From a virus (Duplodnaviria > Caudoviricetes), in the IMG/VR virus record IMGVR_UViG_3300044852_000033, positions 1-43,850 of that record: DNA of 43,850 bases. One strand, given 5' to 3'. Both the position numbers and the translations under genes were made by a program. Shown here piece after piece: positions 14,304-30,857 of this stretch (within the stretch, counting starts at the first letter, position 1; the number at the start of each line of letters is the position of its first letter). The notes under the pieces are model-generated. The model was given only the letters and a program-made list of their open reading frames with translations. It was not told the DNA's origin and searched no databases.

Positions 14304-14716
14304 ACCGCGCCAAGCTGATGGCGCAGTTGGAAGAAGATGAAGGCCGGCGCAAGATCATCTATACCGATTCGGTCGGCAAGATCACCGGCGGCGTCGGGCG
14401 CAACCTGACCGACCGCGCGTTCTCGGACGACGAGATCGACCTGATGCTGAAAAACGATATCGACATGGTGGAGCGCCAGCTCGACCGCACCATTCCCTGG
14501 TGGCGCAAGCTCGACGAGGTGCGCCAGAACGTGATCGCCAACATGGCGTTCAACATGGGCGTGCCGAAGCTGCTCGGCTTCTCGATGACGCTCGACCTGG
14601 TGAACTCGGGCCGGTTCGACGCGGCCGCGCAGGAAATGCTCAGATCCAAATGGGCGGCGCAGGTGGGCGACCGCGCGCTGCGGCTGTCCGCCATGATGCG
14701 GCGAGGGACCTACTGA
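14300..14716 (+). CDS. Endolysin, T4-lysozyme-like
   Basis: EDEG...YTDSVGKITGGVGRNL (E-x8-D-x5-T), NMAFNMG, EMLRSKWAAQVGDRA. Confidence 0.92.
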   Translation: MNRAKLMAQLEEDEGRRKIIYTDSVGKITGGVGRNLTDRAFSDDEIDLMLKNDIDMVERQLDRTIPWWRKLDEVRQNVIANMAFNMGVPKLLGFSMTLDLVNSGRFDAAAQEMLRSKWAAQVGDRALRLSAMMRRGTY

Positions 14717-15129
14717 TGAACCCACTACTGTTCTCCGTCCTCGGCAACCTGCTCGACCGCATCCTGCCGGACCCGAAGGCATCGGCCGAAGCAAAATTGA
14801 AGGTCATGGAAATGGCGCAGGCCGGCGAGCTGGCGCAGCTTGACGCCGAAGTGAAGCTCGCCACCGGACAGATCGAGGTCAACAAGGTCGAGGCCGCCAG
14901 CGAGGGCGCATTCACCCGAAATTGGCGGCCGTTTGTCGGGTGGACCTGCGGCGTCGCGCTCGCGTTTAAATTCATTGGCGGCCCCTCTGCCGTCGTCCTG
15001 ATGGCGATGCTCGGCCATCCGATCACGCTGCCCGAATTCGACTTCTCGGAAATGTCCACCATCCTGATCGGCATGTTGGGCTTGGGAACATTAAGGTCGG
15101 TAGAGAAGATCAAAGGTGCAACGAAGTAA
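14716..15129 (+). CDS. Holin, GTA-type 3TM family-like
   Basis: LLDRILPDP...QIEVNKVEA...WRPFVGWTC...GMLGLGTLRSVEK. Confidence 0.8.
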   Translation: MNPLLFSVLGNLLDRILPDPKASAEAKLKVMEMAQAGELAQLDAEVKLATGQIEVNKVEAASEGAFTRNWRPFVGWTCGVALAFKFIGGPSAVVLMAMLGHPITLPEFDFSEMSTILIGMLGLGTLRSVEKIKGATK

Positions 15130-15130
15130 G

Positions 15131-15159
15131 TTGCCAAAAGAGAACAGCCCGCGTATATT
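15131..15159 (+). promoter_or_regulatory. Sigma70-type promoter inside an inverted repeat (15137-15173)
   Basis: TTGCCA-17 bp-TATATT; repeat arms AAAGAGAACAGCCC / GGGCTGTCTCTTT. Confidence 0.65.
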
Positions 15160-15164
15160 AGGGC

Positions 15165-15221
15165 TGTCTCTTTCATGGTTCCTTTTCGGCACCTTACGCC
15201 CGCTACCCGCGGGCTTTTTTT
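15165..15221 (+). ncRNA. Candidate ~55-nt small RNA
   Basis: Lies between a near-consensus promoter and an intrinsic terminator; pyrimidine-rich 5' part complementary to RBS/ATG regions. Confidence 0.5.
15198..15221 (+). terminator. Rho-independent terminator
   Basis: GCCCGC-N5-GCGGGC followed by T7. Confidence 0.88.
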
Positions 15222-15225
15222 CGCC

Positions 15226-15367
15226 TAGCGTGCGCGCCGGTCCTGGCCGCTCCTTCGCTCCTTCAACAGCCAGCCGAACAGCCGGCGCCAGATTGTCGGT
15301 CCCACGCGCCGGCCGCGGTTAGGGCAGGTTCTCCCTGCTGGCAATCGCTTGTGCAGCACTCAACCAC
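15226..15367 (-). pseudogene. Possibly frameshifted small Cys-rich gene
   Basis: One frame reads VVECCTSDCQQG and another continues RTCPNRGRR...WRRLFGW; one missing base would join them into CCxxxCxQGRxCP. Confidence 0.35.
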
Positions 15368-15446
15368 ACGCGTCTTCAATTGCCACTCCCGTTATTGCGC
15401 GCCCACGCCTCAAAACCTGCGCGGTACTGGTCGGTCGGTTCGGTGC

Positions 15447-18101: not shown

Positions 18102-18131
18102 GGTCTCTTTCCTTGTGGTTTGTATCGACAC

Positions 18132-18161
18132 ATAATAGTTCAGTTTATACTATGTGCGCAA
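18132..18161 (-). promoter_or_regulatory. Leftward sigma70-like promoter
   Basis: TTGCGC-18 bp-TATTAT in an AT-rich intergenic gap. Confidence 0.55.
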
Positions 18162-18168
18162 CCATTAT

Positions 18169-18621
18169 TTAGAAGCTCTCAAGCTCGCGCAGCACGCGGT
18201 CCAGATCGGCCCGGCTGTAGCGCGCCAGCACGCGCCGGTGCACGACGGCCAGCACGTTCTCGTAGATATCCTGGAGTTCGTCCTGGTCGTCGATGGTGTC
18301 GAACGAGAGCGAGCGCGCGATGAGGGTGAAACTGCCGTCCTCGTGGTGGGTGCGGTCGTAGTGACCGGCCAGGATCGCGATGTCGCGCCGAAACCGGGTA
18401 AAGCTGGGGCGCACCGGCTCGCCCTGGTGCTCGTCCGTCGGGCCGTCCCAATGGTCGAACGCGAAGCGCAACAGGACCATCAGCTTCTTGTGCAGGCGCA
18501 CGTCGATCGCGCGCACGACTTCGACACCCTCGCCCGGGCGCAACAGGCGCAGCAGGTCGGCGCCAGCCTGATCGACGGGCACGAATGCGCCATCGGTGCG
18601 GCGGGCGAGGATCACGCTCAC
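18169..18621 (-). CDS. DUF1367-like (NinB-related) protein
   Basis: HKKLMVLLRFAFDHW...SFTRFRRDIAILAGHY...ARSLSFDTID; GTGA overlap. Confidence 0.75.
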   Translation of the reverse strand: MSVILARRTDGAFVPVDQAGADLLRLLRPGEGVEVVRAIDVRLHKKLMVLLRFAFDHWDGPTDEHQGEPVRPSFTRFRRDIAILAGHYDRTHHEDGSFTLIARSLSFDTIDDQDELQDIYENVLAVVHRRVLARYSRADLDRVLRELESF

Positions 18622-20845: not shown

Positions 20846-20897
20846 GTTGTTTTGTCTCTTTCGGGTTGGCGCCCACCGTAGCGGGCGCGGGTTGGTG

Positions 20898-21278: not shown

Positions 21279-21319
21279 AATTTTGTCTCTTCTAGTATTC
21301 GCCGCGCCCTGTGCGCTGC

Positions 21320-22969: not shown

Positions 22970-23707
22970 ATGGATTTCTACACGGGCCTGCACCAGCCGT
23001 CGGACGCGCAGCATTTTGAATTTTCCTTCATTAGCCGCAACCGCCTGAAAAAACGCAAGTCGGGTTTTAAAGTCGGCAAGTGGATCATGGACAGCGGCGC
23101 GTTCACCACGATCCTGACGCATGGCGGCTATCCGGATGGTGTCGAGGAATACGCCGAGCAGATCAAACGCTGGAAGGACAATGGCGAGCTGCTGGCGGCC
23201 GTGGCGCAGGATTACATGTGCGAAGCCCACATGCTGAAACTGACCGGCAAGACGATCCCCGAGCACCAGGCCATGACGATCGAGCGTTACGACGATCTGA
23301 TTGCCTGCGATACGGGCGGCGTCTTGATCCTGCCCGTGCTGCAAGGGTTCGACCCGCAAGACTATGTGTCGCACATTCGCCAGTACGGCGAGCGCTTAAA
23401 ACCTGGCATGTGGGTCGGCGTCGGTTCGGTCTGCAAGAGAAACGGCGACCCGAACGCGATCTATCGGGTGCTGCGCGCCATCAAGGACGAGCGGCCGGAT
23501 TTACGGCTGCACGGCTTCGGCCTGAAATCGACCGCCCTGTCCTCGCCCTACATCACCGACCTGCTGCACACAGCCGACTCGATGGCCTGGAGTTTTTCGG
23601 CGCGCAAGCAGGGCAGGAACGGCAACTGTTGGACCGAAGCGAAAACTTTTACCGACCGCATCAACAACCGCATTTTTTATCAACCTCCGCAACAATCGCT
23701 TTTTTAA
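22970..23707 (+). CDS. dpdA: DpdA-like / tRNA-guanine transglycosylase-fold protein
   Basis: WIMDSGAFT, QDYMCE, PVLQG, GVGSVCKR, LHGFGLK, ADSMAWS are TGT-fold motifs; adjacent to a VUT transporter. Confidence 0.75.
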   Translation: MDFYTGLHQPSDAQHFEFSFISRNRLKKRKSGFKVGKWIMDSGAFTTILTHGGYPDGVEEYAEQIKRWKDNGELLAAVAQDYMCEAHMLKLTGKTIPEHQAMTIERYDDLIACDTGGVLILPVLQGFDPQDYVSHIRQYGERLKPGMWVGVGSVCKRNGDPNAIYRVLRAIKDERPDLRLHGFGLKSTALSSPYITDLLHTADSMAWSFSARKQGRNGNCWTEAKTFTDRINNRIFYQPPQQSLF

Positions 23708-23714
23708 GGAACCC

Positions 23715-24281
23715 ATGAAACTGTCTTTCCTCTATATCGCCGCACTGATCGCCGCCAATCTGACCGTCGCGGCCCTTGGACCGGTCGCCACGCCCATGAT
23801 CGCCTTCTTCCTGATCGGTCTGGACCTGACGCTGCGCGACGCGCTGCACGAGGCATGGGAAGGCAAGCACCTGTGGCCGCGCATGCTGGCGCTGGTTGCC
23901 ATCGCCGGCGCCGTGTCGTACCTGCTGAACCCGGCCGCCGGCCAGATCGCACTGGCGTCCGCGCTGGCCTTTACGGCGTCGGCCATTGTCGACGGCGCCG
24001 TGTTCGCGCTACTGCGCCGTAAAAGCCAGGCCGTGCGCGTGCATGGCTCGAACCTGGCCGGCGGGGCGGTCGATTCGCTGATCTTCCCCGCGCTCGCGTT
24101 CGGCGCCTTCCTGCCGGAGATCTTCGCGCTCCAGCTCGCGGCGAAGGTATGCGGCGGGGCGGCCTGGCTGGTGCTGTTCAACCGCCTGAACCGGATCAAG
24201 CTCAAACGCATAGCCGTCGAGCGGCTGCGCGCGGCCAATGAAGCAGAACTTGCGAGGCAACGCGCGAAGGCAGCGGCATGA
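23715..24281 (+). CDS. yhhQ: VUT/YhhQ-family preQ0/preQ1 transporter
   Basis: Multi-TM; IAAN...FFLIGLDLTLRD..HE...IALASALAF..S...D..VF...SN......DSLIF..LAFG. Confidence 0.8.
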   Translation: MKLSFLYIAALIAANLTVAALGPVATPMIAFFLIGLDLTLRDALHEAWEGKHLWPRMLALVAIAGAVSYLLNPAAGQIALASALAFTASAIVDGAVFALLRRKSQAVRVHGSNLAGGAVDSLIFPALAFGAFLPEIFALQLAAKVCGGAAWLVLFNRLNRIKLKRIAVERLRAANEAELARQRAKAAA

Positions 24282-27256: not shown

Positions 27257-27439
27257 ATGGCAGATTACCGCACCGAAGCGCAGAGCGCGCACCCGTACAA
27301 CGCTGTCGGCGGGCGCGATCACCTGGCCTGGGCCAAGCAGATCATGTACCGCGACGAGCGCAAGTGTTCCGACCTGAGCGCGCACCAGGTCAAGGAAGCA
27401 AAAATGGCGCTGGGCATCGACCAGCCGAAAAAACCATAA
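27257..27439 (+). CDS. Hypothetical protein
   Basis: 60 aa, GGAG RBS. Confidence 0.7.
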   Translation: MADYRTEAQSAHPYNAVGGRDHLAWAKQIMYRDERKCSDLSAHQVKEAKMALGIDQPKKP

Positions 27440-27451
27440 CCGAAAGAGACC

Positions 27452-27664
27452 ATGCTGAAAAAATACATTCCCACCGTCGACCCGGATCCGTTCCACGAAC
27501 ACGCGCTCCAGTACGTGCGGCGCGATGACGACCCCTCAACCGCCGGCCTGGCGCGCGAGCTGGGCATCAACATCGGCCGCGCGGCGAACCTGATGCGCAT
27601 GCTGGTCGAGGAAAACATCATTTCCGAGATCGGGGAAGATGGCCGGCGCCGGGTGATCGCATGA
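27452..27664 (+). CDS. Stand-alone FtsK gamma-like winged-helix protein
   Basis: DPFHEHALQYV...STAGLARELGINIGRAANLMRMLVEENIIS...GRRRV. Confidence 0.7.
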   Translation: MLKKYIPTVDPDPFHEHALQYVRRDDDPSTAGLARELGINIGRAANLMRMLVEENIISEIGEDGRRRVIA

Positions 27665-28947
27665 GCGCCGTCACCTTCGGCAGCGTGTGCAGCGGCATCG
27701 AGGCGGCCAGCGTCGCATGGAACCCGCTGGGCTGGAAAGCGGCATGGCTGGCCGAGATCGAGCCGTTTCCCTGCACGCTGCTGGCGCACCACTACCCCGA
27801 CGTGCCGAACCTGGGCGACATGACGAAGATCGCCCACCTGGTGCGCGACGGCTTTGTCCCGGCCCCGGACGTATTCACGGGCGGCACCCCATGCCAGGCA
27901 TTCAGCGTTGCGGGCCTGCGCAATTCCCTGGACGACGCACGCGGCAACCTTTCCCTGACCTTCTGCGAGATCGCAAATGAAATTGATGCACGACGAAAAT
28001 CAACTGGACTTCTTCCTGCCGTCATCGTTTGGGAAAACGTCCCCGGCGTCCTCAGCACCAAAGACAACGCCTTCGGCTGCTTCCTGGCTGGACTTGCCGG
28101 AGAAGATGATCCGCTCGTCCCGTCAGGGGATAAATGGACGGACGCGGGTTGTGTGTTTGGCCCCGAAAGAACAGTCGCGTGGCGCGTCCTCGATGCCCAA
28201 TACTTCGGCCTGGCCCAACGACGCCGCCGTGTGCTCGTTGTCGCAAGTGCTCGAGACGGGTTCGATCCCGCCGCAGTACTTTTTGAGTTCGACGGCGTGC
28301 GCCGGGATTCTGCGCCGCGCCGGCAACCGGGGCAAGACACTGCCGGCACCCTTGCAAGCCGCACTGGAGGCGGTGGCTTCCCGGGATCCGACGAAGCATG
28401 TAGCGGATACGTCCAGCCTGTAGTCTACGCCCCGGCCATCAGTCACTGCCTGAACGCTGGCGGCATGGGCCGTATCGACTACGAAACGGAATCGATGATC
28501 GTGGCGCCAGCGCCGACCGTATGCGTCACTGGCGACATCACCCATACCCTCAAGGCGGAAGGATTCGACGCTAGCGAGGATGGCACCGGGCGCGGCCAGC
28601 CGATCGTGGCAACGCCAGTGCTGTCGTTCCATGTGGATGCGCAAGTGGATCAAATGCGGTTCGATGAGCACACGGCAGCATCGTTGACCTGTTCGCAAAA
28701 GGCGGGCATATTCTCGAGTATGGCGGTTCGCCGCCTGACGCCGCGCGAGTGCGAGCGCCTGCAAGGCTTCCCCGACGACTACACGCTGATCCCGCTGCCC
28801 GACCGCCGCAGTGCCAAGACCGGCGACCGCCGCGCCGCGCCGCGCATGGCAGCGGACGGGCCGCGCTACAAGGCGCTCGGGAACAGCTGGGCGGTGACGA
28901 AATTCGCCTGGCTGGGCGCGCGCATCGACCGGGCGATGCAGGCATGA
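27661..28947 (+). CDS. DNA cytosine-C5 methyltransferase
   Basis: SVCSGIEA, GGTPCQAFS, WENVPG, QRRRRV, RRLTPRECERLQGF, YKALGNS. Confidence 0.95.
   Translation: MSAVTFGSVCSGIEAASVAWNPLGWKAAWLAEIEPFPCTLLAHHYPDVPNLGDMTKIAHLVRDGFVPAPDVFTGGTPCQAFSVAGLRNSLDDARGNLSLTFCEIANEIDARRKSTGLLPAVIVWENVPGVLSTKDNAFGCFLAGLAGEDDPLVPSGDKWTDAGCVFGPERTVAWRVLDAQYFGLAQRRRRVLVVASARDGFDPAAVLFEFDGVRRDSAPRRQPGQDTAGTLASRTGGGGFPGSDEACSGYVQPVVYAPAISHCLNAGGMGRIDYETESMIVAPAPTVCVTGDITHTLKAEGFDASEDGTGRGQPIVATPVLSFHVDAQVDQMRFDEHTAASLTCSQKAGIFSSMAVRRLTPRECERLQGFPDDYTLIPLPDRRSAKTGDRRAAPRMAADGPRYKALGNSWAVTKFAWLGARIDRAMQA
27977..28423 (+). CDS. Nested out-of-frame ORF, M.EcoHK31I beta-polypeptide-like
   Basis: CSLSQVLETG..PPQYFLSSTACAGILRRA..RGK.LP..L..AL; codon bias favours this frame at its start. 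Confidence 0.6.
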   Translation: MKLMHDENQLDFFLPSSFGKTSPASSAPKTTPSAASWLDLPEKMIRSSRQGINGRTRVVCLAPKEQSRGASSMPNTSAWPNDAAVCSLSQVLETGSIPPQYFLSSTACAGILRRAGNRGKTLPAPLQAALEAVASRDPTKHVADTSSL

Positions 28948-29687: not shown

Positions 29688-29815
29688 GGACGAAACCGCA
29701 ATCGATCCCCTACGCGCCACGGCGCACGAAGAATGACCGCCTCGCCTTTGCCGCGCGCCTGGTGCTGGCCGCTGTGCTGGTGATGGTGGGCCTCTTGACC
29801 TGGCTCTTGCCATAG
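29684..29815 (+). CDS. Small membrane protein (43 aa)
   Basis: ATGA overlap, AAGGA RBS, C-terminal hydrophobic helix. Confidence 0.6.
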   Translation: MRTKPQSIPYAPRRTKNDRLAFAARLVLAAVLVMVGLLTWLLP

Positions 29816-29830
29816 CAGGATATCCGGTTC

Positions 29831-29914
29831 GCCAGAGGAAACAACCCCTATCTGAACAGCCAATCCCGGCATAAACTCAGAGTTTCGGGGGAAACTGGGG
29901 TTGTTTCCTCTGGC
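29831..29914. repeat. Perfect 18-bp inverted repeat with 48-nt spacer
   Basis: GCCAGAGGAAACAACCCC (29831-29848) / GGGGTTGTTTCCTCTGGC (29897-29914). Confidence 0.92.
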
Positions 29915-29924
29915 ATACTGGCAA

Positions 29925-30020: not shown

Positions 30021-30632
30021 CTACCCGCGAGGTTTCAGCCACAATACCGGGCTCGCCCACGCCACCGCGACATTTTCCATCAGCCGCCCGCCGGCAAACA
30101 TCAAGTTGTACTTCTCCGCCTGGTAGCCACGCTCCAGCGTCGCCATGTGCAGCACGCCATCGACTCCCGTGATGACGGCCATGCAGCCCAGCGCCAGCTC
30201 GGGCGCGCCATGCCGCTCCGACAAGAACGCGAGCCAGCCGTCCAGGTGATGCAGGTCCGAGCCGACTGTATGGTATTGCAGCGCGACGGCATCATGGGGC
30301 AAGTCCGCCGGCCCGATCACCGGCTCGCCCACCCGGCGCAGCGTCACGGTCGCATTGCGCTCGACGACACCGGCCAAGCGCACCCGGCGCACGCCATCGG
30401 TCACGTCCACGCCAAGGTTGCGCATCACTTCCGCCGTCGGAACCATCAACTGCTGCGCGATGTCGTTCACTTCGCTCGGCGTCGCGCGCCGCTGCCCGGC
30501 CAGCACCAGGCTCATCGTCGCCGGATCCCGTCCTAAATGCTTCGATAGCGCACGCATGGACAAGTGGCGCTCCTGCATCCGGGCCAGGAACCAGTTCTTG
30601 TTAATCTTTCCTTGCGTAACTTGTTCTCTCAT
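30021..30632 (-). CDS. CI-like repressor: HTH plus degenerate S24-like domain
   Basis: LSMRALSKHLGRDPATMSLVLAGQRR; C-terminal ..DGWLAF..LERG..YNL..AWASPVLWLKP; AGAGGA RBS. Confidence 0.75.
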   Translation of the reverse strand: MREQVTQGKINKNWFLARMQERHLSMRALSKHLGRDPATMSLVLAGQRRATPSEVNDIAQQLMVPTAEVMRNLGVDVTDGVRRVRLAGVVERNATVTLRRVGEPVIGPADLPHDAVALQYHTVGSDLHHLDGWLAFLSERHGAPELALGCMAVITGVDGVLHMATLERGYQAEKYNLMFAGGRLMENVAVAWASPVLWLKPRG

Positions 30633-30857
30633 GGCATCCTCTTGTGGGCTTGAAATTAGTAAAATAAATATAACACCATCGCATTGGGATTGTGCGTATA
30701 AAAGCGGCACGCGCGGCACAGTCCTACAACGCCATGTTGCGCCGCTCCTACAAGAACAGCCCCGCGATTGGCGCCCGCGATGACAAAAGCGCACGCCGCA
30801 GCAACAAAGCGTTTCCCGCATGCTAGAGTTTGACACCATCATCCACCGGAGAGAGAC

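Follow-up and report, generated by a model that had tools for sequence, protein, structure and literature searches.

A predicted phage-borne small RNA related to betaproteobacterial double-hairpin RNAs, with seed matches at gene starts of its own phage

What is the role of a short unit, made up of a promoter, an unpaired seed and a terminator, that sits between the holin stop (15129, plus strand) and the point where the leftward early operon of a phage ends? The window, by which we mean the whole stretch of DNA analyzed, is a complete phage record of 43,850 bp with direct terminal repeats at its ends and a G+C content of 63%. On balance, we favor the reading that the predicted 56-nt RNA was captured from the RF02278-like repertoire of the host and would repress translation by seed pairing with GAAAGAGAC-type ribosome-binding sites (RBSs), chiefly those of the phage's own genes.

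The capsid of this phage shares 55-58% identity with those of phiV10, BcepC6B and related podoviruses. Its HTH profile matched a family inside the order of Paraburkholderia, and the single HTH protein gave no match in genomes of Paraburkholderia's own family (0/120). The HTH-matched family is the likely host group as judged from this protein, and we take it to be Oxalobacteraceae (Massilia, Duganella). No integrase was found among the phage proteins scanned, and no DNA relative was found in named phage records; searches with the holin, capsid, Erf, HTH and endolysin proteins returned distant phages only (best capsid 69-77%).

Promoter, seed, terminator and a long inverted repeat

The unit and its upstream context consist of the following features.

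14716..15129, plus strand: holin gene (3TM), upstream context of the sRNA unit
15113..15150, plus strand: left arm, made up of C-terminal holin codons, the -35 hexamer and the spacer, of an imperfect 31-bp inverted repeat; it pairs with 15161-15195
15131..15136, plus strand: -35 hexamer TTGCCA, directly behind the holin stop, at the same position as the -35 of the canonical chromosomal copy L299
15154..15159, plus strand: -10 hexamer TATATT, 6 nt upstream of RNA G1, in the loop of the long hairpin
15165..15221, plus strand: predicted sRNA of 56-57 nt with a putative start at U15165 or G15166 (sub-threshold RF02278 match; model R1)
15165..15176, plus strand: 5' seed (U)GUCUCUUUCAU, predicted unpaired, its first 11 nt as in a chromosomal paralogue (folding, alignment)
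15177..15193, plus strand: weak first hairpin with a C/U-rich loop; the body is phage-specific and unlike that of the host paralogue
15198..15221, plus strand: intrinsic terminator GCCCGC-UACCC-GCGGGC-U7

Both ends of the unit were recovered where the original prediction had placed them. The promoter TTGCCA-17-TATATT occupies 15131-15159 and is the sole 10/12 sigma-70 match in the genome, which holds eight matches of at least 9/12 on both strands. The strong terminator, GCCCGC/GCGGGC-T7, stands at 15198-15221; the same genome-wide script returned three strong terminators with a U-tract in all, and this one likely also serves the lysis transcript. Upon folding of the free sRNA, nt 1-11 were left unpaired with a probability of at least 0.93, and the first hairpin was weak, with 5 bp and a C/U loop; the Rfam RF02278 model does not align it as paired. 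No variants at the unit were present in the one public DNA run containing the phage, a sediment metagenome from which the record may itself derive.

The promoter had also been placed inside an inverted repeat that was suggested as a possible operator or lysis-operon terminator. The repeat is real and longer than described, reaching 31 bp with the -10 box in its loop, while evidence for an operator was not found: ACAGCCC recurs at one other place only (30756), there is no second repeat, and the operator reading was rejected. The region 15100-15225 folds with a z-score of -6.3; for the inner hairpin, z-scores of -4.7 and -5.6 on the two strands mark it as very stable on either one. Of the first 30 sRNA bases, 26 pair with the upstream arm, and the 58 chromosomal and 84 phage copies compared (142 in all) reach 22 at most. 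Relative to shuffled upstream sequence the duplex is modest (28/1000, and 21/1000 for the outer part), and the raw duplex is stronger in seven phage copies than in the analyzed unit. In the fold of a read-through RNA, seed nt 1-7 are paired. Elsewhere in the window, a long hairpin with a three-way junction (29830-29915, z -5.4 on both strands) lies between convergent genes ending at 29815 (plus) and 30021 (minus).

Folds of this kind could mean that the region acts as a structure in cis only, a pair of terminators where the convergent lysis and early operons meet, derived from a decaying sRNA gene. The "seed" would then belong to a hairpin, as its U-rich tail or one of its arms, and no functional free RNA would exist. 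Read on the minus strand, the inner stem has TCTCTTTT behind it and may serve as the terminator of the leftward early operon; our genome scan found no other strong terminator on that strand. The stability of the inner hairpin on both strands, a long repeat that pairs more of the sRNA 5' end than in any other copy compared, and the lack of a match to the unit in other phages searched agree with a purely structural role. Such a role would, however, require the target enrichment described below to be a coincidence, and it fits poorly with the best promoter match of the genome lying at the exact spacing of the family and with an intact seed, linker and GCCCG terminator. We consider it improbable.

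The minus strand of the unit also reads as a strong RBS followed by ATG (15176), which opens a 178-aa ORF antisense to the holin. Control in cis after the manner of lambda OOP RNA or a type I antitoxin could follow, in which the RNA would base-pair with the leftward early mRNA at its 3' end and either block the RBS and ATG at 15176 or trigger RNase III decay. Early transcripts could read into the sRNA gene because the hairpin at 15198-15214 is without a leftward U-tract. The ORF, however, lacks a Pfam match, and 5/11 holin homologues carry no stop in the corresponding antisense frame, so we treated the ORF as a shadow frame. An anti-RBS RNA would be expected to resemble an RBS when read in mirror image, and the hairpin would hide the 15176 start site on the early mRNA. 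We regard antisense control of this ORF as very unlikely, and a type I toxin-antitoxin or cis-antisense pair, which calls for a conserved small toxin ORF, was rejected on the same grounds (no Pfam match; frame open by default). The last small early gene (15226-15380, minus) looks frameshifted, with a C-x-Q-G start in one frame and an R-T-C-P continuation in another, and shows no variant in the one DNA run.

Kinship with RF02278 and relatives on chromosomes and in phages

At the gathering threshold, no Rfam family matched the sRNA unit; identity with the phage antisense RNAs C4 and isrK was likewise rejected (isrK reached 18.5 bits versus 50). In an E-value scan the best Rfam match was RF02278, with a full-length match at 15165-15222 (model 1-64) of 16.9 bits (E 0.91; cut-off 50). 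RF02278 scores above its cut-off in 37/41 host-family genomes, and 14/30 canonical copies have a -10-like box 6-7 nt upstream of the RNA. We then used a covariance model, R1, built from 85 canonical-seed copies with the phage unit and all UCUUUC copies left out. R1 gave the phage unit 40.2 bits over its full length (E 1.2e-7), the other GCCCGC terminator of the phage genome 21.4 bits, and chromosomal or phage UCUUUC copies 33-43 bits for eight and 17-19 bits for two (L437 and L444). The R1 score is supportive and not independent, since the training set was chosen by a pattern that the phage unit fits too. Judged by these alignments, the phage unit is a divergent phage-borne relative of the double-hairpin sRNAs that falls outside RF02278 by the Rfam threshold, and it is very probably a real sRNA of the double-hairpin kind.

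Among nine weak matches in a DNA search of 401 genomes, one was a chromosomal paralogue starting UGUCUCUUUCA like the phage unit. Copies with the seed UGUCUCUUUCAGGA were found at loci L269, L314-L317, L437, L444 and L447-L463, and at L310 in a phage. The paralogue is present in 5/301 host-family genomes by a strict pattern (one of them the unpublished G007), plus one copy with a different body, and in 16/119 genomes of one host genus; these are undercounts, as copies in G248 and G291 escaped the patterns. The phage unit and the paralogue are identical in their first 11 nt, their 6-nt -10 spacing and their terminator, with up to 17 identical nt across the RNA start for the paralogue at L316. 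In chromosomal UCUUUC copies, TAnnnT lies exactly 6 nt upstream of G1 in 23/24, a spacing equal to that in the phage unit. Paralogue promoters carry the GCGCACAG motif where the phage unit has TTGCCA and the second phage (L310) has TTGACA, and the nearly invariant paralogue body differs from that of the phage unit. RF02278 gave the paralogue and phage-borne copies 30-42 bits in 9/11 loci and no match in 2/11 (cut-off 50), and the chromosomal UGUCUCUUUCAGGA paralogue, at 31-42 bits, is likely unannotated. It was not found in print in a search of chiefly open-access literature. No conserved host target of the paralogue emerged among 18 exact sites or the 30 of 96 wobble sites inspected.

A looser pattern recovered similar units in 108 viral stretches, of which 84 are distinct (L319-L426). 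About 80 distinct viral contigs carry TGTCTCCTC-hairpin-GCCCG terminator units with variable first hairpins, several of which stand behind tRNA-like 3' ends or other terminators. Since 71/80 phage-borne units are without a -10 box at the expected place, most may be processed from longer RNAs. In another phage group, short-seed units (TGTCTCC-hairpin-GCCCGG terminator) stand directly behind the holin stop (L012:4345-4394, L015-L021), and R1 gave 19-24 bits for the four that were scored. The promoter-seed-terminator unit itself, which the original prediction proposed to look for in related phages, did not turn up in the searches made: the exact 18-mer is in 0 viral stretches, the promoter-plus-seed pattern had 119 matches with 0 followed by a terminator, and a metagenome pattern search gave one match, without a promoter and at 10 bits with R1. 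In five records of the distant phages mentioned above, R1 found terminators only.

Seed sites and predicted binding at phage gene starts

The seed sites claimed before genes 18101, 20845 and 27452, together with a part site before gene 21278, are all present at the positions first given for them. With three further sites, the predicted targets on the phage genome are as follows.

27424..27450, plus strand: leader of the FtsK-gamma-only gene 27452, the best-supported candidate target; 23 of the first 25 sRNA bases pair
18103..18111, minus strand: seed site within the RBS of gene 18101 (46-aa membrane peptide); pairing extends somewhat beyond the seed
20853..20862, minus strand: seed site before gene 20845 (127 aa), seed only
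21284..21291, minus strand: partial seed site AAGAGACA before gene 21278, weak
30849..30857, plus strand: seed site before gene 30858 that includes one G-U pair; binding is weak (-8.1 kcal/mol)
30623..30643, minus strand: pairing of about 20 bp, interrupted by two bulges, across the RBS and start of gene 30632 (CI-like repressor), a target selected post hoc
23706..23720, plus strand: start of the Vut_1 transporter gene, AAGGAACCCATGAAA, pairing with sRNA nt 6-20, moderate

Four copies of the seed complement GAAAGAGAC exist in the genome, one of them the sRNA's own seed in reverse complement (15166) and the other three at 18103-18111 (minus), 20854-20862 (minus) and 27442-27450 (plus). It is the sole 9-mer common to three start regions among 1053 distinct upstream 9-mers from 63 curated starts, and across 504 seed permutations only the real seed had its exact complement in 3/63 start regions. 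As GAAAGAGAC-N0-12-ATG, it was found three times in this phage; 50 other phages, 2.07 Mb in total, contain three such sites, and no phage among them has more than one. The Poisson p of 4e-5 overstates the difference because the three seed sites may share ancestry. Host-family genomes contain three to five such sites each, and three of 18 host matches fall on the paralogue itself, read in reverse; the few exact host sites lie at genes that are unrelated between genomes. Given these low counts in other phages and in host genomes, GAAAGAGAC does not qualify as a generic RBS.

The second seed (nt 6-20) beat all 300 shuffles. It is, however, the mirror image of a generic SD-spacer-AUG-AAA start and hence pairs with many starts. 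Pairing of this second seed with the VUT transporter start had been claimed at 23706-23720, where the site is indeed present; binding is only moderate, at -11.8 kcal/mol and rank 8/64. The Vut_1 gene (PF02592) adjoins dpdA (deazapurine DNA modification, PF23859) within 22970-24281.

For whole-RNA binding, 64 starts were ranked, with 30632 first (-20.6), 27452 second (-20.5) and 18101 next (-15.7 kcal/mol). In the comparison with shuffled controls that had been proposed, this binding was only marginal (best start 4/46, top five 2/46, median 31/46). We also kept the seed fixed and shuffled the sRNA body 400 times. In this test, 2/400 shuffles were as good as the real body for the 27452 leader, 4/400 for 30632 (a target chosen post hoc from 64), 37/400 for 18101, which is borderline, and 9/400 for the three seed targets jointly. 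The body adds nothing to the binding of 20845 (252/400), 21278 (373/400) or 30858. As the sRNA body is complementary to the upstream arm too, its match to 27452 could be a by-product. The host paralogue binds the 27452 leader at about -11 kcal/mol.

Several features of these genes and their neighbors were noted along the way. Gene 27452-27664 encodes a stand-alone FtsK gamma-domain protein of 70 aa (PF09397), possibly a KOPS-binding mimic, and a DNA methyltransferase lies at 27661-28947. The CI-like repressor (30021-30632; HTH plus an S24-like fold) is encoded far from the replication genes. Before gene 18101, back-to-back promoter-like sites surround an imperfect palindrome at 18125-18170 (ACATAATAG...CTATGT), a possible operator. 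A search of 251 host-family genomes for gene 20845 gave no match.

Matching of this sort was not seen in the other carriers compared. The second phage with the same seed, G770, has 0 own AAAGAGAC-ATG sites. The density of AGGAGAC-ATG sites in canonical carriers (28 in 1.48 Mb) does not exceed that of host genomes, and five of these carriers, chosen for their many sites, showed no preference for their own sRNA, which was best for own GGAGAC starts in 5/26 (mean rank 3.1 of 5 versus the other four sRNAs). Given this site density and the five-carrier binding comparison, general self-targeting by phage-borne copies is unsupported. Because neither the carriers nor G770 show self-matching, self-targeting, if real, would be specific to the analyzed phage.

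These comparisons bear on a reading in which the unit is an unregulated copy of the host paralogue directed at the host, where it would repress transport and catabolism genes with GGAGAC-type RBSs via G-U pairs, or compete for Hfq; the phage sites would then be incidental or meant for the host paralogue. The seed of the phage unit is identical to that of the host sRNA, AGGAGAC-N0-12-ATG is abundant in host-family genomes (139-158 each), and PMC10987360 and PMC11722255 give transporters and catabolic genes as targets of the RF02278/S17 family. The roughly 80 viral contigs with such units, without self-matching in the five carriers compared, the seed in G770 without own sites, and the affinity of the paralogue itself for the 27452 leader point in the same direction. 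This reading nevertheless leaves unexplained the three exact seed sites in one phage versus three in 50 others and the 23-bp match to the 27452 leader, and the exact host sites are rare and fall on unrelated genes in different genomes. We see action on the host alone as rather unlikely.

In line with the preferred reading of a captured RNA aimed chiefly at the phage's own RBSs, phage genes are probably among the functional targets of the predicted sRNA. The claim of a trans-acting anti-RBS sRNA gains support from homology to a tested family and from the enrichment of seed complements at phage starts; what the original prediction missed is the likely capture from a host-type RF02278-like sRNA and the hairpin over the whole 5' domain. 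Its proposal of a host receptor porin found no support: the AAGGAACCATGAAA pattern with at most one mismatch had seven matches in five host-family genomes, and none was a porin when the N-termini were read.

Proposed mode of action and comparison with known systems

We propose that the phage captured a host double-hairpin sRNA gene and that host sigma-70 polymerase would make the sRNA early, from a consensus -35 where host copies have the GCGCACAG motif. The RNA would use Hfq, as S17 does, and its unpaired 5' seed would block RBSs by analogy with S17. Expression of the FtsK-gamma gene (27452), of the 46-aa membrane peptide (18101) and of gene 20845 could be damped in this way, and perhaps also that of the CI-like repressor (30632). 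In transcripts that cover the region as the tail of the lysis mRNA, or of the early mRNA on the other strand, the long hairpin would mask the seed. A broader and more tentative scenario is that betaproteobacterial phages widely carry the host double-hairpin scaffold and that the analyzed phage rewired one into a private switch: the host seed would have been kept, a consensus promoter acquired, its own early genes tagged with a matching RBS, and the body rebuilt to pair both with two leaders, those of the FtsK-gamma and CI-like repressor genes, and with the upstream off-switch arm. If true, this would show a phage gaining a regulatory sRNA through capture of a host sRNA gene and a change of promoter, body and targets. 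With an FtsK-gamma-only protein and a CI-like repressor among its predicted targets, the RNA may influence division of the host or the lysis decision.

Both the mechanism, ordinary seed pairing at RBSs, and the sRNA family are already known. A search of chiefly open-access literature found no print report of the UCUUUC seed variant, of a phage-borne RF02278-like RNA or of the predicted self-targets. The closest relatives are the Betaproteobacteria toxic small RNAs, or double-hairpin RNAs (RF02278; B. cenocepacia ncS03, ncS05, ncS27 and ncS62). In PMC5688073, the B. cenocepacia RNAs measure 57-67 nt versus 56-57 nt for the phage unit, cover RBSs via C/U-rich pairing in target predictions and, in the case of ncS27, slow growth upon overexpression. 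The RF02278 RNAs and the phage unit share the 5' UGUCUC start, an unpaired C/U-rich seed, a possible first hairpin, a short linker, a GCCCG...CGGGC-U terminator, an own promoter and equal -10 spacing. They differ in the seed, which is UCUUUC in the phage unit versus CCUCC in RF02278, the canonical continuation CUCC (anti-GGAGGAGAC) being replaced by UUUC, and in the first hairpin, which in the phage unit is weak and unrelated to that of RF02278.

A related 5' seed is found in Bordetella pertussis S17S, for which PMC11722255 reports Hfq-dependent RBS blocking as demonstrated, a mode of action that we infer for the phage unit. According to the same source, S17 is Hfq-dependent, with RBS sites in 70/92 derepressed genes; RNase E releases S17S from a longer RNA, and the targets of S17S are transport and regulator genes of the host (PMC11722255). 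The phage unit, in contrast, has a promoter at its own 5' end, and it differs from the RF02278 RNAs in being phage-encoded, with predicted targets on its own phage.

Short phage antisense RNAs offer a second comparison. The c4 RNA of P1/P7 has its own promoter and represses the phage's own genes by pairing; it belongs to another Rfam family, which did not match the phage unit. Lambda OOP and P22 sar are, like the phage unit, short phage RNAs with their own promoter whose pairing represses genes of the same phage, and the accessible part of PMC12197685 does not describe either as a captured host sRNA scaffold. Unlike the phage unit, OOP and sar are cis-encoded, each against a single mRNA (PMC12197685).
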